A DNA stretch of 64,000 nucleotides from Octopus vulgaris (Eukaryota), in NCBI GenBank assembly GCA_951406725.2, contig OX597815.1, positions 182,342,001-182,406,000 of the forward strand, read 5' to 3'. The notes beneath the pieces are model-generated. The model did not search any database, had not been told where the DNA came from, and was given only the letters and a program-made list of their open reading frames with translations. Of this stretch, positions 1 through 53,724 are shown in pieces. The translations under genes were made by a program, and so were the position numbers. Position 1 is the first letter of the stretch. Every line of letters begins with the position of its first letter.

Positions 1-133
1 TCCATCATATTTTCACTTCCAACAGTAAAATATCTCTTATTTTGTCATATATTTGTAATCGTGATTACATAACCGAAAATAGAAAAATACGTTTAATCAA
101 CATCCTTACCTTAAATGACGCCTTCTGTGTCTG

Positions 134-175
<42 letters not shown>

Positions 176-330
176 GAATAATATATGTAATATCTCTATA
201 CATACTTATATATATATATATATATATACATATATATAATTTATATACACACACATATGTATATATGTGTGTGCATATAGATGATGAGTAAAGCACCGGC
301 AGAATTTCGATTACCTGTTGTTATCCGTAG

Positions 331-391
<61 letters not shown>

Positions 392-394
<3 letters not shown>

Positions 395-666
395 AATTAA
401 GGACTGGACACGAAAAAGTGGACAGTCAACATGCTAGATATAGATGTCAAATCGCCATTCTCCACAAAGATTATGTTCTCAAATAAAATAAAATTCAGCA
501 CGACCCAAAGCAATAGATAAGACAAAAGAAATATACGAAATGGAATAATCACCTGTGTACCGAACGGTTTCAGTTATTAATATCACAAGGATATCTGTAA
601 CTTCGTCAGCACAGTTTGTTATGAAAATAATTTGGTGTACTAGATGAAAAACGATACCGGAGTCTC

Positions 667-668
<2 letters not shown>
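392..668 (-). mobile_element. Short non-autonomous Penelope-pLTR-like element (family D) carrying a hammerhead ribozyme, embedded in (TA)n
   Basis: Bounded by (TA)n on both sides; homologous to 41108-41385 (shared start ccaattaaggactg.acacgaaaa.gtggacagtcaacatgctagatataga); contains the hammerhead at 553-614. Confidence 0.75.
553..614 (-). ncRNA. Type I hammerhead ribozyme, canonical core
   Basis: Minus strand reads CTGTG-CTGACGA-AGTTA(cagatatccttgtgatattaa)TAACT-GAAA-CCG TT CGG-TA-CACAG. Stems I, II and III all pair, the CUGANGA and GAAA boxes are intact, and the cleavage triplet is GUA. Confidence 0.85.
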
Positions 669-726
<58 letters not shown>

Positions 727-740
727 ATATGTATATATAT

Positions 741-951
741 GACCGCCATGTTGATTCGTTAGCTCCTGCACGCATTTATTTTCTCTCCTTGTTTCTCTCC
801 GTGTTTCTTTTCTGTGTATCTTTCTGTTGAAGAGCGTAGTCTCGAAACGTAAAAGACTTGTTTTATTTCTATTCCTGAGCGCCATACTAATACAATTGTT
901 TGTTTGTACTCCACCTGCATTCGTCTTTTGTTTATTTTCGTAAAGCTTCCT

Positions 952-954
<3 letters not shown>
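741..954 (+). mobile_element. Short Penelope-pLTR-like element (family F) with a minimal hammerhead motif, flanked by (TA)n
   Basis: Closely similar to 40052-40263; T-rich 3' end running into (TA)n. Confidence 0.7.
819..856 (+). ncRNA. Minimal type I hammerhead variant (core CUGUUGA)
   Basis: TCTTT-CTGTTGA-A-GAG(cgtagt)CTC-GAAA-CG-TA-AAAGA: stem I TCTTT/AAAGA, palindromic ACGT stem III as in Penelope minimal hammerheads, A6>U substitution. Confidence 0.65.
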
Positions 955-1027
<73 letters not shown>

Positions 1028-1057
1028 AAAAAAGGAGATGTCGAACACGAGTGGTGA

Positions 1058-1378
1058 TATATAAAAAAGGAAATGAAGAAAATGCTGACAAATAATTGAA
1101 GTAATTTAAGTAATTTAATTAGGTGAAAGTTCTTTTTACCGGTTGCGCATTTGTTATGCTTATCAAAATATAAAAGAGAGATTAGAGTCTGTCTCTTATA
1201 TGTGAAAAAAAGAGGCTCCAGAGTTGTTTTGGATTTGCTTGGTTTCGCGCCTAAAATTTTGATTGGTCATTATGAAGGGGTCACGTGAATGTTGGTGTTG
1301 GGGTAAGAAAAAAGGCTCCAGAGAAGTTAAAATTTGGCTAGTGTCCCGCCTAAAATTTCTTATTGGCCATAATAAAGA
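1058..1378 (-). repeat. Inverted pLTR copy (left arm)
   Basis: Reverse complement of 2440-2772. Confidence 0.9.
1131..1177 (-). ncRNA. Hammerhead-like motif in the inverted pLTR
   Basis: Exact reverse complement of 2653-2699. Confidence 0.6.
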
Positions 1379-1943
1379 CACCATCCTCCAGAACATTCCT
1401 GTATTACAACAGGACCATAGAATGAACCAAATCCTCCTAACACACGAAATCATAAAGAGCAAAAGGCAACCCAAATCATTGAAAACCATCCTAACAAATG
1501 CCAAAGTACTGCCAACCACAACAACTAAACCCACAGTAAACAAATGCAATAGACCCAACTGTGGTATATGCATCAACCTAATAGAAGGTCCGGAATTCCT
1601 TTTTAAACAAGGACAACGTTTCACAGTAAAACACAACTTCACATGCGCATCAGAAAACCTAGTATATGTCTTAACTTGCTCGGGCTGTAATGAACACTAC
1701 ATAGGCCAAACAAAAAATAGCCTCCGCCAACGCATGACTGTCCACAGATCCCAAATAAAAATACAGGAATATAGAAAAATAGCATTTAGTGCACATATTG
1801 ATACCTGTGCCGCACAACTCCATCCCAATTTTAGAATATTTCCCCTCTACAAATTTAAAGACAATGCCACTCATACCCAGCGAATAACTATGGAATCCCA
1901 CCTTATTAATAAATACAGACCACTTCTAAACACATGCCCCTAA
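1263..1943 (+). CDS. GIY-YIG endonuclease (C-terminal domain of a Penelope-like element ORF)
   Basis: RQPKSLK linker, CNRPNCGIC Cys cluster, NLVYVLTCSGCNEHYIGQTKNSLRQRMTVH (GIY-YIG with CxxC and catalytic Arg), ESHLI (Glu), LLN. The first ~39 codons derive from the inverted pLTR; no RT domain. Confidence 0.9.
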   Translation: MVIMKGSRECWCWGKKKGSREVKIWLVSRLKFLIGHNKDTILQNIPVLQQDHRMNQILLTHEIIKSKRQPKSLKTILTNAKVLPTTTTKPTVNKCNRPNCGICINLIEGPEFLFKQGQRFTVKHNFTCASENLVYVLTCSGCNEHYIGQTKNSLRQRMTVHRSQIKIQEYRKIAFSAHIDTCAAQLHPNFRIFPLYKFKDNATHTQRITMESHLINKYRPLLNTCP

Positions 1944-2423
1944 CACGAACCCACAACAAACACACTTACACCTGCACACACCCTACACACACCTTTACCC
2001 AGATATTAACACCATGACACACACAAATATATGGTTCCACACATACACATAATTGAATACGGGTGCAAAACATCCAACACTATTTTTGGAAATGGCTGTA
2101 AATATTGACTTCACACAAATACGTTGCTTCCCGATACAGGCACAAGGCCAGCAGAACTATAAATATTGAAAATTGTACCCACACACACACACATATATAC
2201 ACGCGCGCGCGCCCCAACATACATATAAACACACACGCGCGCGCGCGCGCACACACACATACATACATACAGCTCTCCCTGTTCTAAACGAACTTACTTA
2301 TCCAGTCAAGCGGAAAATACACTCCCTTACTACGCGCTAAAAAGCTATTTAAAATATCCACATGACGTCTACTGACCAGCCTGAACAATAAGAATTTCCA
2401 ACAACACTATTTTCGAAAATTCT

Positions 2424-2625
2424 AAACATTCACGTGACCTCTTTATTATGGCCAATAAGAAATTTTAGGCGGGACACTAGCCAAATTTTAACTTCTCTGG
2501 AGCCTTTTTTCTTACCCCAACACCAACTTCCATTCAAACATTCACGTGACCCCTTCATAATGACCAATCAAAATTTTAGGCGCGAAACCAAGCAAATCCA
2601 AAACAACTCTGGAGCCTCTTTTTTT
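2424..2625 (+). promoter_or_regulatory. Duplicated E-box/CCAAT/E2F-like motif cassette in the pLTR
   Basis: Two tandem units, each CACGTGAC ... CCAAT ... TTTTAGGCGGGA or TTTTAGGCGCGAAA. Confidence 0.4.
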
Positions 2626-2766
2626 CACATATAAGAGACAGACTCTAATCTCTCTTTTATATTTTGATAAGCATAACAAATGCGCAACCGGTAAAAAGAA
2701 CTTTCACCTAATTAAATTACTTAAATTACTTCAATTATTTGTCAGCATTTTCTTCATTTCCTTTTT

Positions 2767-2772
<6 letters not shown>
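2440..2772 (+). repeat. 3' pLTR (right arm)
   Basis: Matches 1058-1378 in inverted orientation; contains two ~110-bp internal tandem units. Confidence 0.9.
2653..2699 (+). ncRNA. Hammerhead-like motif in the pLTR (variant core UUGAUAA...GCAA)
   Basis: TTGATAA-GCAT(aacaa)ATGC-GCAA-CCGG-TA-AAAAGA; U3-A8 replaces the C3-G8 pair; palindromic ACCGGT stem III; mirrored at 1131-1177 on the minus strand. Confidence 0.6.
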
Positions 2773-2809
<37 letters not shown>

Positions 2810-2817
2810 ATAACTAT

Positions 2818-2854
<37 letters not shown>

Positions 2855-3639
2855 CAAATATATATACATATATGTATGTATATATCTTTATATATATATG
2901 TATGCATATATGAGTGTGTGCATGAAGGAGTGAGTAAAATATTGTCTAAAGCTTTCCCATGTTCTTCTCCATCATTAAGCATTAGTGTACATGTACTTAG
3001 CTCTACTTCTATCACTATTGTCACAAACGTACGGGCGTATATGTTTCGCTGATGGAGTCAGATATCAAAGAAAAACTTTCTGAATTACTCATCTTATTTG
3101 ACGAAATAATTACTCAATGTGTTTAATACCTTTTCTCTTCACCTAATTATTTCTACTACGATTTTGCATCATCCTTTATTAAATATGCTGGCACTAAGGA
3201 TTTTCATGTATGTTCCATTTGTTTGTAGCATATAATGAGAAACGCAGATTAATATAAACACAATTTCCACCGTAACCTTAAATAGAAGTCTAGAAAACAG
3301 GTTTACTGCAATTATACATACACATAAATAAACAATAATCAAAGTGAGCTTTGACCTGTCACACTTAGCTGCAACACCACAGTGTATTAGCTTCAGCAAA
3401 AAAGGTTGAGTGTATAGAGCAATTTCGTTATAGCTGCCACAAAAGGTGTATTTTCCATCACAGAAAAGTATTAAAACAACTGTCATTTGGAGGAGGCAAA
3501 GATTGTTGGATGTTAGCGAGAGAGGTTTTCGGAGGTTGGCGACAAAGTACTGTGATTCGTCGTGGAATTTTAAAGGTGAACTTTATGAAAGCTAATTTAT
3601 TACGGGTAATATATAAATGTAGCATATATGTATATAAAT

Positions 3640-4925
3640 ATATGAATGAAGTGTTTAATGTTTAAGACTGAAATGAAGAAAGTGCAATAATAATGTTCAC
3701 ACTCACTCATGGTCGCTCTCAGTAACTGCTTTAGCTTATGGAGTTCTTGTTTTTATAACTATTGAAAAGCAACCAGAAGGATAGACATATTGTTGAGAAC
3801 AAATGGTTCCGTTGCAGGTTTGTTATCTCTATTCCAGCCAGTGGTGGCCTAGAAGTTAGAAGGGTCAGATGGCAAAGACATAATCATGCTTAGCGAAAGA
3901 ATCTGGGAAATGTATAACTGCTGTCATTCACAGGAAAACTATAGATTTAACGAGAGAAAAGTGCTGTTGAAGTGTTAAGTGAAATTTGCCAATCGAGGAT
4001 CGAATCCACGCTGTACCTGCATGAAGCCACTACAAATACGTTGTAGAATGAAAAATTAACCTACTGCCATGGAAAAAGTGTAACTGTAAAAATTTATATA
4101 TGTATAGAAATGTATGAATGTAGTCTTTAAGGTTTAAGATTCAAATCAAGGAAGTGCTATAATAATGTTTAGCAGTTCAAAACTGAGTAGTGAAATGCAG
4201 AATTTAGTCGTCTGATCTAGAGAATCAAATTTTGATCGCTTCGCTAAAAACTGCAGGTGGTATGCGTTATTTCCTTATTTCCTTTGGGTTGTTTAAATGA
4301 AATATTAGTAATATGTAGTAGGTAGAAGGATCCATTGGAGGGGCCCTATTATTGATTTTTTTCAACAATCTAAATATGTTACGAGGTTTCCAGACTTGAG
4401 TTCTACTCACGTGTCAAATAAAGTTTAAAAGTGATATTGTCTGCAAAAATTAGAAATTGGACACACAAAAAATCAATATTGAAAGTAATGGAGCATGAAC
4501 AATGAAACCTATAAAATATTTCTAAATTCGATGGCTCATTTAGCTTCATGAAAATGTTGAATGAACTGTAAATAAGCAATAAATATTATGATTTGTAAAA
4601 TAAGTATAAATGATACACAGTGTCCGAACTGAACTTGGTGTGGAAGTTTAGTTTCATTTTTAAAGAATTTTAAGCATTTAAAGTATGAGTTGATTGTATT
4701 GGGTCACACTTATTAAATACGTTCTGGAATCAAATAATTATGTACTGTCTTTGGAAACGTTAATCTGGAAAAATGCAGAATTATCTGAGTTATGGGCATT
4801 GAAAGTGTACATGTATTAAGAAAGTGCAATAATAAGGTTTACCAGTTAAAAACTGTAAGTAGGGAAATGTAGAATTAAGTCCGCTGATCATGAGAATCAA
4901 ATATTGAGTGCTTCGCTAAAAACTA
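3640..4925 (+). repeat. Diverged local direct repeats
   Basis: aagtgc(a/t)ataataa(t/g)gtt block at ~3680, ~4150 and ~4820; the last two extend ~105 bp to cttcgctaaaaact. Confidence 0.55.
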
Positions 4926-10762: not shown

Positions 10763-12899
10763 AACTCCAGATTTTTATCTTACGAGAATAAACAAAACTC
10801 CTTGGCAAAAATGTGTTGGTTGTAATGGTACTTATTTTGATGGATGAAATTTCTGTATTGTTGAAATAAATTGAGATTGATTTCATGTTTCAAAACGTTG
10901 CTTTCTTTTTACTCAGCTTGATATTTTACCTGGACGCAACAATAGACCGCTTACAGATCAACATTCGCAAAACAGCTTGTGCTGTCAGTTTCACTCTCCT
11001 TGCGATCCTTTGCACAATGTAGCGTTTTCTCAACGTAAAGATGACAGATGTCAGGTTGAGTACAAAGTTTGAGTGTTTCTCAAGCTCAACAAAATTGAAA
11101 TACTGTAGCGTCTTCTCAAAGAAGCTCTCGCTCTTGTCGAGGGTTCTGAGAGCTTGGCGATAAGAAGCAAAAGTAAAATGAAAGAAAGCGATTTTATAAT
11201 CGATGGGTTTAAAAGCGGAAGACTTCTGTAATATAAACAATAAACTGGAAAACAATAAACTAACAAGAGAACGATCTGTTTCTGGGACATCTGAGTTTGA
11301 AAATAAGAAGAGTGTCTATATCAAAAGTTTCAAAGAAGCCATCGAGATAATTGAAGTTCGAAATATTGATCTTGCCCAGCTGACAGAAAAGTACATGAAG
11401 CTATCTATTGATACCAACAGGGTATACATCCTGCCGTGACATTCCAAATGGAAGAAACCAAGTCAAGCGAATCTACTTGCACAAAGTTGATGATCGATCA
11501 TGACGCCTAACTGAATAAGGAACTAATGAGGTCCGCCGATCTTCTGACCCACTTCATTATGTCCCCTTTTAGCCGCATAGCTACAACGCTGGACACCTCC
11601 ACTGAAGTGAAACAAAACTCTAGCTTCAATGCATTTATATGTGTAGACAATACAAATGCAACAACATGAATACAAAACTATGGCGAAGAGTCGGTGACTT
11701 ATGCAGTAGTACCCAATGGATGCGTAGGCCAATGCAGAACTCAGCAAGCCGTTTCGAGTTTTGAAAATCCATAATAATAATAATAATAATAATAACAATA
11801 ATGATAACATAAATATAGACTTGGATACAGCAATGAACCCTAATAAACTAGCTAACGTACGAAAATACATTCTCAACGCAAAAAAAAATATCAGAAATAG
11901 AAATAGAACATCTAAAAGAAAAACTACACCAGGAAAATGTAGATAGAAGCCACACAACAATGCCCAATAGTATAAATACTGAAACAGTAAAACACGAAGA
12001 CAAATGTAACATTCCCAACAAACACGATGTAAACAAAAAACAACAAACCCAGACCGTAAGGATGCATAATAATACACGACAAACAGCAAGCCAAAACACG
12101 ACAAACAAACATATAAATAAGAAAGAAAGCGACACAAATCTAAAACCTGGAAACAACAAAGGGGAGCCTAATGATTATGATAATATAAAAAGTAAAGTAA
12201 TCAAAGAACTGAAAACCACAGAGCTCAAAATGGACCACCGACCATACCTCCCACAAATCAAAATAGACGAAACAACAACACCAATTATAAACACATAAAC
12301 CTAGCCGTCACGGAACTAATAGCCACTGAAAGAAAAAGCGATATCACTGAGCTAAATGACTTAGTATACGCAGCAGCCACTGCAGCCACAAAAGAAGCTG
12401 GATACTCACTCAAACCTATCCAAACAGGAGTAACACCACCCAAACAAACCCTGTGGATAAATAACATCCAAAACAAAATACAAAAAATGAGAAAATATCT
12501 GTCGATTCTTAACGAAATCAGTAGACAATCAACACTACTGAGCAACAAAAAGAAAACAAAAATACTCCGCAAATATAACATCACAGAAAAAGATTTACCT
12601 GAGATAAAAGAAAAGCTGAAGCAAGATATCCTTGCCAAAGCACAAAGGGTCCGTCGGTACGAGAAACGCCGGTGCTTCATTGAACAAAACAAAAAGTTCA
12701 ACTCCAACACCAAAAAGTTCTACCAAGAACTTGGCAAAAATAAAATAGAAATCACTGCAGCACCAACGGCAGAAGAAGTGTACGAATTCTGGAGAGAAAT
12801 ATGGTCGGCGAACGAACAACCAAAAAAAAAAGGAGTATTAAAACAACAAACTCAGCATCTGAGCAACTTTGGACCTCCATAACAACTGAAGAGGTCACC

Positions 12900-13818
12900 C
12901 AGGCACTGCAAAGACTAAGCAACTGGAAGGCACCTGGGCATGACAAGATCCACAACTTCTAGTTGAAATATCTAACGGGAATGCACAAAAAGCTGGCTGA
13001 AAATTTTAACAACATACTAGCAGAACCAGAGACAATGCCTGAATGGCTCACGAAGGGGAAAACCATCTTAATTCCCAAATCAAATGAGACAGCAAAACCA
13101 GAAAACTACAGACCAATAACCTGTTTCCCTACATTGTACAAGGCATTTACTGCAGTAATATCGCAAAGGTTGAACAAGCACCTGGACGAAAACAACTGTT
13201 TCCAGAAGAGCAGAAGGATGCCGCAAAGGCTCATATGGTTGTATAGATCAACTAATGATTAATAAAGCCATAACTGAAGACAGCCACAGAAAGAATAAAG
13301 GCCTCAGTATGGCCTGGATCGACTACAAAAAGGTGTTTGATAACATCCCCCATACATGGATCCTCGAAACACTAGCCATTAACAAAGTAGCACCAACAAT
13401 TATAAAATTCATAGGGCACTCTATGAATAAATGGCAAACAGTGCTACAGCTCCAAACAAAAGAGGGACTCATGAAAACCGAAGCCATCCCCATTAGAAGA
13501 GGAATATTCCAGGGAGACACGCTCTCTCCACTCCTTTTCTGCTTGGCATTGTCACCTCTATCTGATATGCTAAATAGAACTGGATGCGGATATAAATGTT
13601 ACGGCAAAACGATCAGCCACCTTTTATATATGGATGACCTAAAACTATACGCTGCAAATGACAAACAGCTGGAAACACTATTAAAGACAGTTCATGGATT
13701 TACCAAAGAGATAGATATGAAATTTGGATTAGAAAAATGCGCCAAAGTAACCATGAAAAGAGGAAAACTAGTTAAGAATAGCAACATCACACTAGATAAA
13801 ACCAATGAAATAAAATAA
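12900..13818 (+). pseudogene. Reverse transcriptase domain of the R4/Dong LINE (frameshifted)
   Basis: ORFs 12963-13262 and 13255-13818: ENYRPITCFPTLYK, GIFQGDTLSPLLFCLAL, HLLYMDDLKLYA, FGLEKCA. Confidence 0.92.
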
Positions 13819-13884
13819 TTAGACCAAAGCCAAACTTACAAATACTCAGGAATCCATGAACTAGATAAGACACAACACACACAA

Positions 13885-15175
13885 ATGAAAGAGAAAATAA
13901 AAAAAGACTATTATAGACGAGTTAGATCAATACTAAAAACAGAGCTCAATGCTAAAAACAAGATAATAGGTATTAACACTTTAGCTGTCCCAGTTATAAG
14001 TTACAGCTACAATATCCTTAACTGGACACTAAATGAACTGACCAAAATAGATAGGAAAACAAGAAAAATAATGACAGGATCTAGGATGCATCACCCAAAA
14101 TCTGACATAGAAAGACTATATATACAACGTATAGAAGGTGGTAGAGGCCTTATACAGCTGGAAAACTACTATAAAATAACCACCATAGGACTGCAAAAAT
14201 ATCTACTTCAGAAGGAAGGAAAACTGATACAAATAGCGACAAAACACGAGCAACACAAAAAACTGTTCTCAGTATTCAAGGAAGCTGACAAATACAAACA
14301 AGAAATCATACCACCTAATAAACACGAAGAAGAAGAAGAAGATGATGAAGAAACAACAAAAGCTATAAAACAAATGAAATCCAAACTAAAAATAGAACAG
14401 CAACGAACCATGATAAAACGATGGCAAGAAAAGCCCCTTCATGGTAAATACTGGACTAAACTAAACGCAAAAGAAATAGACAAAGAGAAATCCCAGCAAT
14501 GGTTGAGAAGCTCAGGGCTCAAAGCAGAGACAGAGGGATTTTTAATTGCAGCACAAGACCAAAGCCTCCCCACAAGAAATTACCAAAAATATGTAATGAA
14601 AAGAAATATAACAAGTAACTGCAGAATATGTGGAGATGGACAAGAAACAATAAATCATATTATCTCTAGCTACCCAGTCCTGGCTAAGAAGGAATATATT
14701 CACAGACATGACAGAGTTGGAACCTACATACACTGGAAGCTATGCCAACATTATGGAATAACAACAGAAAAAAGATGGTATAGGCACACACCAGAACAGG
14801 TCACAGAAAACGAGAAAGCAACCATACTCTGGGATATGCCGATACACACAGATAGAGAAATTAAGGCCAACAGACCAGATATAGTTGTCAGAGATCATGA
14901 AGAAAAAAATGCTTTCTAATTGATGTATCAATACCGGCAGATGACAACGTGTCTCTAAACTTTCAAAATACAAAGACCTGGAAATAGGGGTAACCAGAAT
15001 GTGAAATCTAAAAACAGAAACAATTCCTATCATAGTAGGTGCATTAGGCATGATAAAAAAGTATTCAGACAAATACATAACAAAAACACCAGGACTTACA
15101 AACACATATAACATACAGAAAATTGCACTACTAGGCACTGCACGCATCCTACGCAGAACACTTTCCATACAATAA
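13885..15175 (+). pseudogene. RT thumb, Zn-knuckle and restriction-like endonuclease of the R4/Dong LINE
   Basis: ERLYIQRIEGGRGL, KPLHGKY, AAQDQSL, CRICGDGQETINHIISSY (last Cys lost), RHDRVG, ANRPDIV; frameshifts after 14915; ends RILRRTLSIQ*. Confidence 0.88.
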
Positions 15176-19316: not shown

Positions 19317-19369
<53 letters not shown>

Positions 19370-19555
19370 ATTAGGGGTTAGTAAAATAAATTACTTTGCC
19401 ACATACTGAACTTGCTAGAAATAGCAGCCAAAAAAGTTTTTTTGCCATTTCCACTACTTAAAGAAAATTTCTCTCAGATAATGTTTACTCAAAATAACTC
19501 ACGATGGTATGGAGGTAAAAACAGAAAAATATCACAAGTACAAAGATTATTTGAG

Positions 19556-19615
19556 AACGTTAACGTTTCTAGATTAGCCAAATAAACTCAGCATTTCTTT
19601 CGTCAGCTCAACATT
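19556..19615 (-). ncRNA. Type I hammerhead ribozyme motif (inverted copy)
   Basis: Reverse complement of 20207-20266. Confidence 0.7.
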
Positions 19616-20206
19616 TCTTATTTTGGATTTGGACGCACTAAAAAGAAAGAACATACCCTTTGGCGACTTATCACCTCAGATGACCCGTTCAGACTGCCAG
19701 TACCAACAAATTCAAAATGTGCAAGCGAAGATTCCCTGCTCTCCCCTTCCACCCACGTGGGTTATCTAGCAAACATTATATTTTAACGGTGAGAACCGAG
19801 GCAATATGACAGAGAGAAATGAATTATAATATCAACAATTGAGGGTAAAATTAATTAGTTATTAATCAATTTCACCAAGTATTCAATATGTAAAAGGACC
19901 ATTTAAGGCGAATTCAAAATATTACATTATATAATTAGGGCTTAGTAAAATAAATTACTTTGCCACATACTGAACTTGCTAGAAATAGCAGCCAAAAATG
20001 TTTTTTTGCCATTTCCACTACTTAAAGAAAATTTCTCTCAGATAATGTTTACTCAAAATAACTCACTAAATGGAAGGGGAGAGCAGGGAATCTTCGCTTG
20101 CACATTTTGAATTTGTTGGTACTGGCAGTCTGAACGGGTCATCTGAGGTGATAAGTCGCCAAAGGGTATGTTCTTTCTTTTTAGTGCGTCCAAATCCAAA
20201 ATAAGA

Positions 20207-20266
20207 AATGTTGAGCTGACGAAAGAAATGCTGAGTTTATTTGGCTAATCTAGAAACGTTAACGTT
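20207..20266 (+). ncRNA. Type I hammerhead ribozyme motif
   Basis: AATGTT(gag)-CTGACGA-AAGA(aatGCTGAGTttATTTGGCtaa)TCTA-GAAA-CG-TT-AACGTT; intact boxes, extended stem II, palindromic stem III. Confidence 0.7.
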
Positions 20267-20551
20267 CTCAAATAATCTTTGTACTTGTGATATTTTTCTG
20301 TTTTTACCTCCATACCATCGTGAGTTATTTTGAGTAAACATTATCTGAGAGAAATTTTCTTTAAGTAGTGGAAATGGCAAAAAAACTTTTTTGGCTGCTA
20401 TTTCTAGCAAGTTCAGTATGTGGCAAAGTAATTTATTTTACTAAGCCCTAATTATATAATGTAATATTTTGAATTCGCCTTAAATGGTCCTTTTACATAC
20501 TGAATACTTGGTGAAATTGATTAATAACTAATTAATTTTACCCTCAATTGT

Positions 20552-20593
<42 letters not shown>

Positions 20594-25395: not shown

Positions 25396-25434
25396 TAGAT
25401 AAGAAAGTTTGTTTGGTAAAGCACGTGGGTGAAT

Positions 25435-26152
25435 ATATAAGAAAATAGTAAAGTGTGAAAAAACGACAGAAGGCTTAAATGTTAAAAAATATATATATTT
25501 GTGTCAAAATGTCTGGAGAATATTGGAAAAATTTTTTTCCTTTCCTTAAAATGACATAATTTTAAAATTTTTAAAGAAATTACCGGTTTCGCGTGTAGCT
25601 TTTCAAATTTCTTGAAGCTACACGCGAAACCGGTAATTTCTTTAAAAATTTTAAAATTATGTCATTTTAAGGAAAGGAAAAAATTTTTTCCAATATTCAG
25701 GAGTGGCTGTGTGGTAAGTAGCTTGCTAACCAACCACACGGTTGCGGGTTCAGTCCCACTGCGTGGCATCTTGGGCAAGTGTCTTCTGCTATAGCCCCGG
25801 GCCGACCAATGCCTTGTGAGTGGATTTGGTAGACGGAAACTGAAAGAAGCCTGTCGTATATATGTATATATATATGTATGCGTGTGTTTGTGTGTCTGTG
25901 TTTGTCCCCCTAGCATTGCTTGACAACCGATGCTGGTGTATTTTGGTCCCCGTCACTTAGCGGTTCGGCAAAAAGAGACCGATAGAATAAGTACTAAAAG
26001 GTGGTGCTCCAGCATGGCCGCAGTCAAATGACTGAAACAAATAAAAGAGTAAAAGAGTAAAGAGTATTCTCCAGACATTTTGACACAAATATATATATTT
26101 TTTAACATTTAAGCCTTCTGTCGTTTTTTCACACTTTACTATTTTCTTATAT
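25435..26152. mobile_element. Foldback palindrome of two head-to-head pLTR 3' ends, interrupted by a SINE
   Basis: 25435-25600 is the reverse complement of 25616-25698 plus 26065-26152; each arm starts with the hammerhead 3' half GC-GAAA-CCGG-TA. Confidence 0.8.
25698..26065 (+). mobile_element. SINE family A inserted in the palindrome arm
   Basis: Family A head and tail; short tattc duplication at the junctions. Confidence 0.88.
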
Positions 26153-33699: not shown

Positions 33700-35176
33700 G
33701 GCTGATATGATTTTTCATACGAGCTTTACTGGTCAGACTTAGTTAATGTTCACCAGATTACTTCCAGTTCTGTGATTCAACAAGCGGTCCTACCACTGAT
33801 GAAAGAAAAAAGACCGACTGCATTGATTATTTTTCCGGCTCATAACTCTGTTATGCGCAAATTTCAAGATTTGGGCCAAAGTGCTAACGAAAGGATTAGC
33901 GCTTGTCGCCGGGATCTGATAAGAGATACTGTAGTCCCTTCTTACGTAATTCTTCTTCATGTTCTTTTTGTACTTCTTCCTCAAAAGCTTTTGTCAACAT
34001 CAGCGTTATTAGCTCTCTTTGGGTATTTACCATTGAGGGGTTTTTCTTGCCATTTATCAGGCAGAATATCTAAGGCAGCAGTTTTAGCACGGGTTTTTAT
34101 ACACTTAGCTTTTTCTGTGCTTGTTTCCAGTACGTCTAATTCTGGCATTTGTTGTTTTGGGAATTCACTTTGATATTTCTTTGCCTACTTTGTTGCTGAG
34201 TATGATTCTTTCTTGTTTTTACACTTTAAAACAAGTTTAACATCCAGTCACCAGAGTTTTTCAGGTAGGTATTGAGGCCAATTGTGGAAATTTTCATTGT
34301 TAATGCCAGTTGTAAAAGTCCACGGCCTCCTACTTTTCTTGGCAGCTAAAGTTGTTCTATACTTGCCTTAGGGTGATGCATTCTATGCATTGTCAACAAT
34401 TGTCGTATTTTTCTGTCAAGATTACCTACTTCAGTAATTGACCAGTCAATGATATTGAAACTGTAAGTCACGACTGGTATGGCTAAAGTATTGATCACTT
34501 CGATCCTGTTTCTTGCGTTCGGTTCTGTCTTGAATATTGCTCTCTCTCTGCGATAACATTCTCTTCTGATCCTTTCCCTCATCATTGAATGTTTGATTCC
34601 ATCATCTTCAAATACCCCTAGGTATTTGTAGCTCACCGCTGGTTCTAACTTATTTATGACGTTCTGCTGGTCAAGATTAACGTTGGATGTTTCTGTAATT
34701 TTTCCTTTGATAAAGGTAGCTTTTGTGCATTTATCAAGGCCAAATTCCATCCTAATGTCATTACTGAACTGCTTAACAATTGCTAGTAAGCCCTGTAGTT
34801 ATTGGTCATTTTTTGCAAAGAGCTTTATATCATCCATATAAAAGAGATGATTTATATTTTTATCAAAAATGTTTTAGCTATATTGAACATCATCGAGCAA
34901 TTTCAAGAGAAGAATTAAAATTAGACAAAAGACAAGTGGTGGTAGAGAGTCACCCTGGAAAATGCCGCATAAAATTCTTGCATCTCCAGCATTGAGAAAT
35001 TCATTGTCATTGGTCAAAATCAGTGTGGTTCTCTATTCAGACAAGAAGTTTCGCAGAGTAGGTGCTATCTTAGACATTTCCAGACATTTCTTAATCAAGC
35101 TATGTGATAAACTAGCAAAAGCTTTTTTATAGTCTACCCAGGTTGTCGACAAGTTTTTGTGTCGTTTGTAACAATC

Positions 35177-40051: not shown

Positions 40052-40261
40052 GATCGCCATGTTGATTCGTTAGTTACCGCACGCATTTTTTCTCTCCTTC
40101 TTTCTGTGTTTTTTTTTCTCTGTGTATCTTTCTGTTGAAGAGCGTAGGGTCGAAACGTTAAAGACTTGTTTTATTTATATTTCCTGAGCGCCATACTAAT
40201 ACAATTGTTTGTTTGTTTTCCACCTGCCTTCGTCTTTTGTCTATTTTCATAAAGCTTCCCG

Positions 40262-41107: not shown

Positions 41108-41110
<3 letters not shown>

Positions 41111-41385
41111 AATTAAGGACTGCACACGAAAAGTGGACAGTCAACATGCTAGATATAGACGTCAAATCGCCATTCTCCACAAAAAAAGTTTATGTTCTCA
41201 GATCAAACTCAACAAAACCAAAGCAATAAACAAGTGAAAAATATACGAAATAAATATTTACCCATGTACTAAATTTAGTTTCAGCTGTTATTTTCCGCAA
41301 GGAAAAGTGCAGCATCATCAGCATGGTCCCATATAAAATGTAATTTGCTGGACTAAATGCCAACACGACACCAAAATATCGCGTG
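41108..41385 (-). mobile_element. Family D hammerhead element, second copy
   Basis: Homologous to 392-668; (TA)n on both sides. Confidence 0.75.
41262..41326 (-). ncRNA. Type I hammerhead ribozyme, canonical core
   Basis: CCATG-CTGATGA-TGCTG(cacTTTTCCttgcGGAAAAtaa)CAGCT-GAAA-CTAAATTTAG-TA-CATGG; helices covary with 553-614. Confidence 0.85.
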
Positions 41386-53443: not shown

Positions 53444-53724
53444 CTATATTTAAGAGATAAGGAATTATTTACATTATTTGCATTATTTACATCTGACGGA
53501 TATTTGTCCTCATCTTGTTTGTTTTTAACACGTTTCGGCTGATATACCCTCCAGCCTTCATCAGGTGTCTTGGGGGAAATTTCGAACCTGGGTTCTCATT
53601 CCTTAGGTATTTTTCGATGTTGTTGTCATTATTATTATTATTATCACTGCTTGGAATCGAACTCAGAATATTGGGGTTAGTAGCCCGCGCTCTTAACCAC
53701 TATGCCATATGCCCGTGGGCATAT
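53444..53724 (-). mobile_element. Family C tRNA-headed hammerhead element, second copy
   Basis: Head GGGCATATGGCATAGTGGTTAAGAGCGCGGGCTACTAACCCC...GAGTTCGATTCC with A and B boxes; 5' palindrome atatgccc-gt-gggcatat. Confidence 0.8.
53527..53569 (-). ncRNA. Minimal type I hammerhead (canonical core, 3-nt deletion at the cleavage site)
   Basis: GACAC-CTGATGA-A-GGCTG(gagggtatat)CAGCC-GAAAC-GTGTT. Confidence 0.7.

Follow-up and report, generated by a model that had tools for sequence, protein, structure and literature searches.

A head-to-head, 5'-truncated Penelope-like insertion with an open GIY-YIG endonuclease frame in Octopus vulgaris

A stretch of 64,000 nucleotides from Octopus vulgaris (GenBank assembly GCA_951406725.2, contig OX597815.1, positions 182,342,001 to 182,406,000 of the forward strand; hereafter the window, numbered from its first letter) contains a Penelope-like element (PLE) that lacks a reverse transcriptase (RT). 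Its GIY-YIG endonuclease (EN) is encoded by an intact open reading frame (ORF), which begins in an inverted copy of the element's own pseudo-long terminal repeat (pLTR). Does this arrangement represent the debris of a single insertion, or an RT-free nuclease gene, perhaps belonging to a family that encodes a nuclease only? Our analysis indicated that the locus is most likely an ordinary, recent and dead copy, composed of two head-to-head, 5'-truncated pieces of one Neptune-type PLE in a (TA)n array, with the ORF as a by-product. This reading is preferred because the anatomy of the locus equals that published for 5'-truncated PLE insertions, which carry an inverted 5'-truncated copy at their 5' end and a one-sided tail of 30-40 bp, and which lie in a microsatellite target (PMC8557442).

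Anatomy of the insertion

The left arm of the unit (1057-1378) repeats 2440-2773 in inverted orientation; all 322 of 322 aligned bases agree, and the only difference is a 12-nt gap, which sits in the left arm at 1293/1294 and corresponds to 2525-2536 in the right arm (Table 1). The inverted match ends at 1378/1379, and protein homology begins at the same junction. Together with the open frame, these boundaries confirmed the proposal of a first-pass annotation that the inverted pLTR is joined to the coding remnant at 1378/1379 without a stop; its description of the unit as Penelope-like, 5'-truncated and RT-less, with an inverted pLTR as left arm, was likewise borne out. The same annotation had placed the start of the unit at 1058. 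While the inverted arm is real, comparison of the left and right flanks revealed a 32-bp 'tail' (1025-1056) beyond the left arm, without counterpart at the right arm, which moves the start to near 1025. The unit consists of a plus-strand piece of 1395 bp (1379-2773), which contains the end of the RT thumb/linker, the intact endonuclease, the 3' untranslated region (UTR) and the pLTR, and a minus-strand piece of about 350 bp (1378-1025), which contains pLTR and tail. (TA)n repeats abut both ends, and a target-site duplication is unreadable inside such an array. Chance is no plausible source of the inverted repeat or of the GIY-YIG domain, but it could well have produced the in-frame ATG.

Table 1. 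Features of the insertion and its flanks (window coordinates).
Feature	Coordinates	Strand	Basis or remark
(TA)n array, left of target site	954..1023		
32-bp tail, extension of the element's 3' end, left copy only	1025..1056	-	outer boundary approximate, blends into TA array
Inverted 5'-truncated copy of the element's 3' end (inverted pLTR)	1057..1378	-	
Chimeric 223-aa ORF	1272..1943	+	residues 1-36 from pLTR antisense, 37-223 from coding remnant; codon 36 spans the junction
C-terminal stump of RT thumb/linker, residues 37-78, including Met51 at ATG 1422	1379..1505	+	aligns after the RT in relatives
CX4CxxC zinc-finger-like linker (C92, C97, C100)	1545..1571	+	
GIY-YIG core with CCHH (C136, C139, H158, H175), Y132, Y143, R154, E208, N220, then stop	1659..1943	+	Pfam, conservation
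3' UTR with short CA/GC microsatellites	1944..2439	+	not duplicated in left arm
Two ~90-bp modules 112 bp apart, predicted pLTR promoter	2424..2625	+	motif positions 2431/2452/2468 and 2543/2564/2580
3' end of main copy (pLTR), template for the inverted arm	2440..2773	+	
Degenerate minimal-hammerhead-like motif	2664..2693	+	pattern scan; U3/A8 core variant, 4-bp stem II, palindromic CCGG, C for core A13
(TA)n/(TG)n array, right of target site	2767..2809		

Inverted 5' pLTRs had been put forward as a known product of Penelope 5' truncation, and the locus indeed matches published structures. The closest likeness is to the 5'-truncated Neptune insertions described in PMC8557442, which share a C-terminal GIY-YIG domain with CX2-5CxxC and CCHH motifs, the inverted 5' copy, the one-sided tail and the microsatellite target. 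A hammerhead motif in the pLTR is also reported there; the window copy has a hammerhead-like one with a degenerate core (C at A13). In contrast to those insertions, the window copy keeps only the last 187 codons, the clade-defining RT is missing, and the nearest RT-bearing protein found was 59% identical. Head-to-head truncated forms are described also for Drosophila virilis (PMC2377424) and Adineta vaga (PMC3846280), and the tail has been shown to be the stretch between two reverse-transcription start sites (PMC11167929). The inverted-repeat form of D. virilis Penelope is a truncated copy with inverted terminal repeats of variable length and a tail of 34 bp (32 bp in the window). It differs in having a full-length ORF and in being active, and Penelope/Poseidon endonucleases are described as being without the CX2-5CxxC linker found in the window. 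The A. vaga elements Pen2, Pen5 and Pen6 are 5'-truncated, bordered by inverted pLTRs, show short microhomology deletions and are treated as inactive (PMC3846280), but their junctions often have palindromes and their ORFs are often broken, whereas the window junction lacks a palindrome and the remnant is intact.

Other systems resemble the unit less closely. According to PMC8557442, the Naiad endonuclease is essentially indistinguishable from that of Neptune and Naiad has a (TA)n target, but this endonuclease lies N-terminal to the RT, whereas that of the window ends the ORF after a thumb/linker stump. Animal retrozymes and Chlamys MRC1 likewise derive from PLE 3' ends and lack an RT; they are, however, multi-copy and non-coding or tandem, while the window unit is single in 64 kb and has a coding remnant. 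With terminal inverted repeat (TIR) transposons and miniature inverted-repeat transposable elements, the unit shares no more than the external appearance of long terminal inverted repeats. The likeness to a TIR element noted in the first-pass annotation was not supported: both arms stem from the 3' end of the retroelement itself, they are of unequal length, only one bears a tail, and the unit encodes no transposase. A TIR DNA transposon was rejected on the same grounds, GIY-YIG being the only Pfam match. No report of an endonuclease-only Penelope family was found in searches of open-access papers, and consensus sets in published supplements may already include the family of the window element.

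The coding remnant and its relatives

In the chimeric protein, Pfam detected a single domain, PF01541 (GIY-YIG; E 7e-7, residues 130-217). The residues Y132, Y143, R154, E208 and N220 were all present, as were C92/C97/C100, C125, C136/C139 and H158/H175, so that the catalytic Tyr, Arg, Glu and Asn and the Cys clusters are intact, as first claimed. All of the 29 columns with at least 85% conservation among 39 RT-bearing relatives were matched. An AlphaFold model of the protein reached a predicted local distance difference test (pLDDT) of 97-98 over residues 91-220 and of about 50 over residues 1-30. Foldseek returned no match at E 0.001 or better; its top ranks were GIY-YIG domains, the best being the catalytic domain of I-TevI (E 0.017, probability 1.00, TM-score 0.72 over the target). 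A sequence search of solved structures yielded only T4 endonuclease II (E 4e-4), plus one chance match.

Two protein searches gave 9 matches among 52 candidates of similar length and 5 among 215 longer candidates. A third produced 4267 representatives at a threshold of E 0.001; the top 150 of these were used, and the combined set comprised 164 proteins. In 147 of the best 150 of these 4267 matches, the best stretch started at query residue 33 or later. Nineteen of the 164 proteins were at least 690 aa long, and all 19 contained an RT [YF][LI]DD motif upstream of the endonuclease. From residue 35 onwards, the window protein matched positions 557-740 of a 742-position profile of these full-length relatives (E 2e-67). 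Because of this profile match and because homology starts at the junction, 1379-1943 can be identified as the last quarter of a single RT-endonuclease ORF. When the 19 full-length relatives were used as tblastn queries for the RT domain, they matched only 1377-1934 in the whole 64-kb window.

The window protein and the 45 closest of the 92 proteins (of 171) that cover the whole remnant were placed in a tree, from which shorter matches, including the 63%-identical P0001, were omitted. The window protein fell in a clade of eight rows with 99/91 support, four of them RT-endonuclease ORFs, in a tree without labelled clade references. The best RT-bearing relative was 59% identical among the matches found, and an Argonauta hians protein (51% identical) was among the relatives. 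Over the thumb/linker stump, the window protein was 59% identical to its five nearest RT-bearing relatives, vs. 57% among those relatives; for the GIY-YIG core, the corresponding values were 52 and 57%.

Assignment to a clade was based on the CX2-5CxxC linker, which is present upstream of the C-terminal GIY-YIG domain (C92-X4-C97-XX-C100) and is also a feature of Nematis, hence not unique to Neptune. As described in PMC8557442, Neptune, Nematis and Naiad have this linker and Penelope/Poseidon do not, and the Naiad endonuclease is N-terminal. Because the linker is present and the endonuclease is C-terminal, the element can be classed as putatively Neptune-type; this label draws on the CX4CxxC linker, the CCHH motif and the order of RT and endonuclease in relatives, the RT itself being missing from the copy. 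The Penelope/Poseidon clade was rejected on the presence of the linker. Naiad was rejected on the stop directly after the endonuclease, the thumb/linker stump upstream of it and the upstream position of the RT in 19 of 19 full-length relatives.

Origin of the frame and competing explanations

The inverted pLTR does supply an in-frame ATG at 1272, as the first-pass annotation had proposed, and no stop occurs before 1941-1943. In the phase of the ORF, the antisense strand of the pLTR is open for 38 codons, which include this ATG. The frame initially described as a 226-aa ORF is open, but 226 aa is the stop-to-stop count (1263-1943), and the length from ATG 1272 is 223 aa. Although the start provided by the pLTR is real, it is unneeded for a nuclease ORF, as the native Met51 (ATG 1422) suffices and opens a 173-aa ORF that holds the whole endonuclease. 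Methionine occupies this position in 38 of 68 relatives and is the first residue in 10 of these. The 12-nt gap between the arms is neutral to the ORF; it was rejected as a frame-opening change, since the right-arm version of the frame is also open.

In a simulation, the junction was placed at successive positions of the element's 3' region, read in antisense and in each of the three phases, under the assumption of uniform truncation points. An in-frame ATG without a stop was obtained in 906 of 2343 (39%), 303 of 1353 (22%) and 285 of 903 (32%) junction-phase pairs for three length ranges, and in 906 of 2289 pairs when the tail was included. Add-ons of at least 30 aa were obtained in 234, 39 and 39 pairs in the same three ranges. 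A new start is common in this loose form, and uncommon but unremarkable in a strict form. Among the 145 short protein matches, 13 carried at least 20 foreign N-terminal residues, at other junctions and unrelated to the N-terminus in the window, although some of these may be gene-calling or frameshift artefacts. These 13 Penelope-like matches indicated that truncated copies often acquire upstream starts. They include P0109, P0128, P0144, P0151 and nine others, and IY runs in some suggest translated TA arrays.

The age of the copy was estimated from its arms. No substitution separates them over 322 bp, which limits their divergence to at most 0.93% (95% upper bound). At 0.46% divergence (half of this bound, per copy), the probability that no nonsense change has occurred in the 187-codon remnant is 0.90. 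A distance of 0.09 has been equated with 25 million years (PMC13282606); if this calibration applies to the octopus host, our arithmetic gives an age of about 1.3 million years or less. The identical arms thus point to a copy too young for decay, which is the likely reason why its catalytic residues are intact. The thumb/linker stump has not decayed relative to the endonuclease, which argues against an old nuclease-only lineage.

These features are likely to have arisen in a single insertion event. A parent with both RT and endonuclease, autonomous and located at another genomic site, would have nicked the TA array and begun reverse transcription of its RNA at two start sites, one on either side of the tail, yielding one cDNA with the tail and one without it. 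Both cDNAs would have stopped early, and the truncated products would have been joined 5' end to 5' end in the TA array. The junction would have created the 223-aa ORF by chance, because the antisense pLTR happens to be open and to contain an ATG. As it lacks an RT, the resulting copy cannot mobilise itself, and it is likely inactive. The window's own control for this reading is another unit in a TA array (25398-26152), which is likewise head-to-head and one-tailed and has no endonuclease. Its 88-bp arms are 100% identical, its centre is a near-palindrome of 181 bp, about 35 bp extra are found on the left only, and a later repeat has been inserted at about 25699-26064.

Several results weigh against this interpretation. 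The observed junction is among the less common simulated outcomes: of 2289 junctions with the tail included, just 159 (6.9%) gave an add-on of at least 35 aa, and 201 (8.8%) gave an ATG preceded by a purine at -3. The match to 29 of 29 conserved columns is at the top of the range of 27-29 found among RT-bearing relatives themselves. A direct RT-bearing parent was not found, and none is present in the 64-kb window. Gene conversion between the arms could make the copy look younger. Absence of the chimeric N-terminus from all protein matches found is weak evidence, because animal genomes are thinly sampled. Finally, two features speak for possible expression of the frame. The left arm contains motifs that we take to be CCAAT, E2F-like and E-box motifs, possibly active in either direction, and an AATAAA at 1908, a possible poly(A) signal, could terminate a transcript ahead of the 3' repeat and so avoid a hairpin.

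These last two features, together with the intact catalytic and Cys/His residues and the confident GIY-YIG model, would fit a one-off copy that is expressed, an explanation that we nevertheless regard as unlikely. The inverted pLTR would then act as an inward promoter, or host transcription would read through, and a free GIY-YIG nuclease, translated from ATG 1272 or Met51, would be able to nick AT-rich DNA in the absence of an RT. PMC3846280 proposed, but did not demonstrate, that the pLTR promoter is bidirectional, and the isolated endonuclease domain of D. virilis cleaves DNA, as cited in PMC11167929. However, transcription from the promoter mapped in D. virilis is in the sense direction, into the downstream copy (PMC2377424). 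Furthermore, ATG 1272 lies within a motif module, between its CCAAT and E-box motifs, and follows five short ATG frames (1038, 1073, 1082, 1156 and 1200). In the predicted fold of an RNA spanning 1230-2620, 149 of 149 bases of 1230-1378 are paired and ATG 1272-1274 pairs with 2556-2558. Translation from ATG 1272 is predicted to be poor because of the five upstream ATG frames and the pairing with the 3' repeat. A transcript that reaches this repeat would fold into a long perfect duplex, a likely trigger of silencing. A sigma-70 promoter scan gave 2 sites vs. 2.5 expected, with a model unsuited to an animal locus.

The first-pass annotation had left the choice between a one-off insertion and an endonuclease-only family. 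The identical arms and the chance ATG favour a one-off, while a family is unsupported by any match to the N-terminus or second copy in 64 kb. A young non-autonomous family, in which a parental RT acts in trans on transcripts of the complete inverted-repeat unit and re-inserts them, with the junction kept and the ORF under selection, would agree with the intact ORF. Such mobilisation has precedents, since pLTR sequences by themselves suffice for the mobilisation of unrelated DNA in trans, as described for a nonribosomal peptide synthetase (NRPS) case (PMC3846280), and non-autonomous PLE derivatives exist (PMC8557442; bioRxiv 10.64898/2026.07.22.740005), the latter report being concerned with non-coding retrozymes. 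We nevertheless consider this explanation very unlikely. The 64-kb window contains no second copy of the 1378/1379 junction, the coding remnant or the tail, and no protein match with the chimeric N-terminus was found. Residues 1-48 used alone as a query gave no candidate, BLAST of residues 1-36 against the 164 matched proteins gave a 5-residue match as its best (E 0.48), and exact look-up of three protein forms, the third starting at 1434 rather than at Met51, retrieved 0 of 3 from the collection. Any master copy would itself have to be very young, as the arms are without substitutions. The thumb stump shows no relaxation, and the 12-nt gap is of no help to the ORF. Equally slim is the chance that the inverted pLTR serves as both inward promoter and start-codon donor, and that the copy is an expressed, RT-free, (TA)n-nicking nuclease gene that spreads in trans as a nuclease-only family.

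The least probable explanation is an assembly artefact, in which the collapse or mis-joining of a longer Penelope array, tandem or inverted, produced a junction that is absent from the genome: such structures trouble short-read assemblies (PMC8557442), the arms are without substitutions and the flanks are long TA arrays, but the 12-nt gap and the one-sided tail between the arms would not arise from collapse, the 64-kb window contains no N, and the structure fits a known biological product.

Predicted pLTR motifs, neighbouring repeats and significance

Each of the two pLTR modules contains motifs that we name E-box, CCAAT and E2F-like, in that order, an arrangement found in 0 of 2000 shuffles with a pattern that was written after seeing the sequence. 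The duplicated module presumably resembles promoters of cell-cycle genes. If the modules are functional, transcription of the parent would be tied to dividing cells. A literature search on E2F/CCAAT promoters in Penelope elements found no paper in which all of its terms occurred together.

The hammerhead-like motif in the 3' end of the element is repeated in the left arm at 1137-1166 (minus strand), and the same 3' half of the motif occurs in the unit at 25398-26152. A U3-A8 core variant of the hammerhead is described in PMC4209133. The motif folds no better than shuffles (z -0.7), and an Rfam scan of 1-4000 gave 60 matches, all below the gathering score and mostly microRNA models on microsatellites, with no hammerhead among them; the motif at 2664-2693 is a lead only. 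Core position 13 is C in both arms (2684-2687 and 1143-1146) and A in the unit at 25398-26152. Because both arms carry it, the C was likely already present in the template RNA. An ATG at 2680 lies inside the motif and is followed by a possible 55-nt GT-AG intron (2691-2745), with a spliced frame that is open through the tail. This ATG may be the true start of the parent's ORF, and in the frame predicted from 2680 the change at position 13 would be synonymous.

Further repeats were observed in the window. Its first 1 kb is a nest of short-repeat insertions in TA arrays. A short repeat at 392-665 (minus strand), located between TA arrays, has a well-formed hammerhead-type core from 609 on the minus strand and a 75%-identical copy at 41108-41372; it probably represents a pLTR or retrozyme from a different family. 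A second short repeat (740-953, plus strand), immediately to the left of the main unit, ends in a TA array and has an 89%-identical copy at 40052-40259 and, by eye, a possible degenerate hammerhead core near 825-850. Between TA arrays at 19362-20556 lies a tandem-plus-inverted unit, with inverted repeats of 420 bp (97.6%) and 237 bp (99.2%) and a direct repeat of 141 bp. By eye, one stretch of it resembles a hammerhead core, and none of its ORFs exceeds 66 aa. This unit is likely another Penelope-like insertion. A pattern scan also identified a minimal hammerhead-type core with a 6-bp stem II at 53564 (minus strand). A non-LTR retrotransposon with an RT-like region is represented by ORFs broken by stops at 12196-14919 (plus strand), and a related fragment lies at 34346-34798 (minus strand); the element is putatively R4/Dong-like.

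As the ordinary dead copy that it most likely is, the locus is of little weight; it is a clean example of PLE insertion and indicates that a Neptune-type family was active recently. If a nuclease-only family were true, it would represent a PLE derivative that kept its nuclease and lost its RT, the reverse of the known lineages that lost the endonuclease, and would show one way in which new nuclease genes can arise from the debris of retrotransposons. That the CX2-5CxxC linker directs microsatellite targeting is put forward as a hypothesis in PMC8557442, and the intact 173-aa domain could serve directly as a construct with which to examine this role of the linker.

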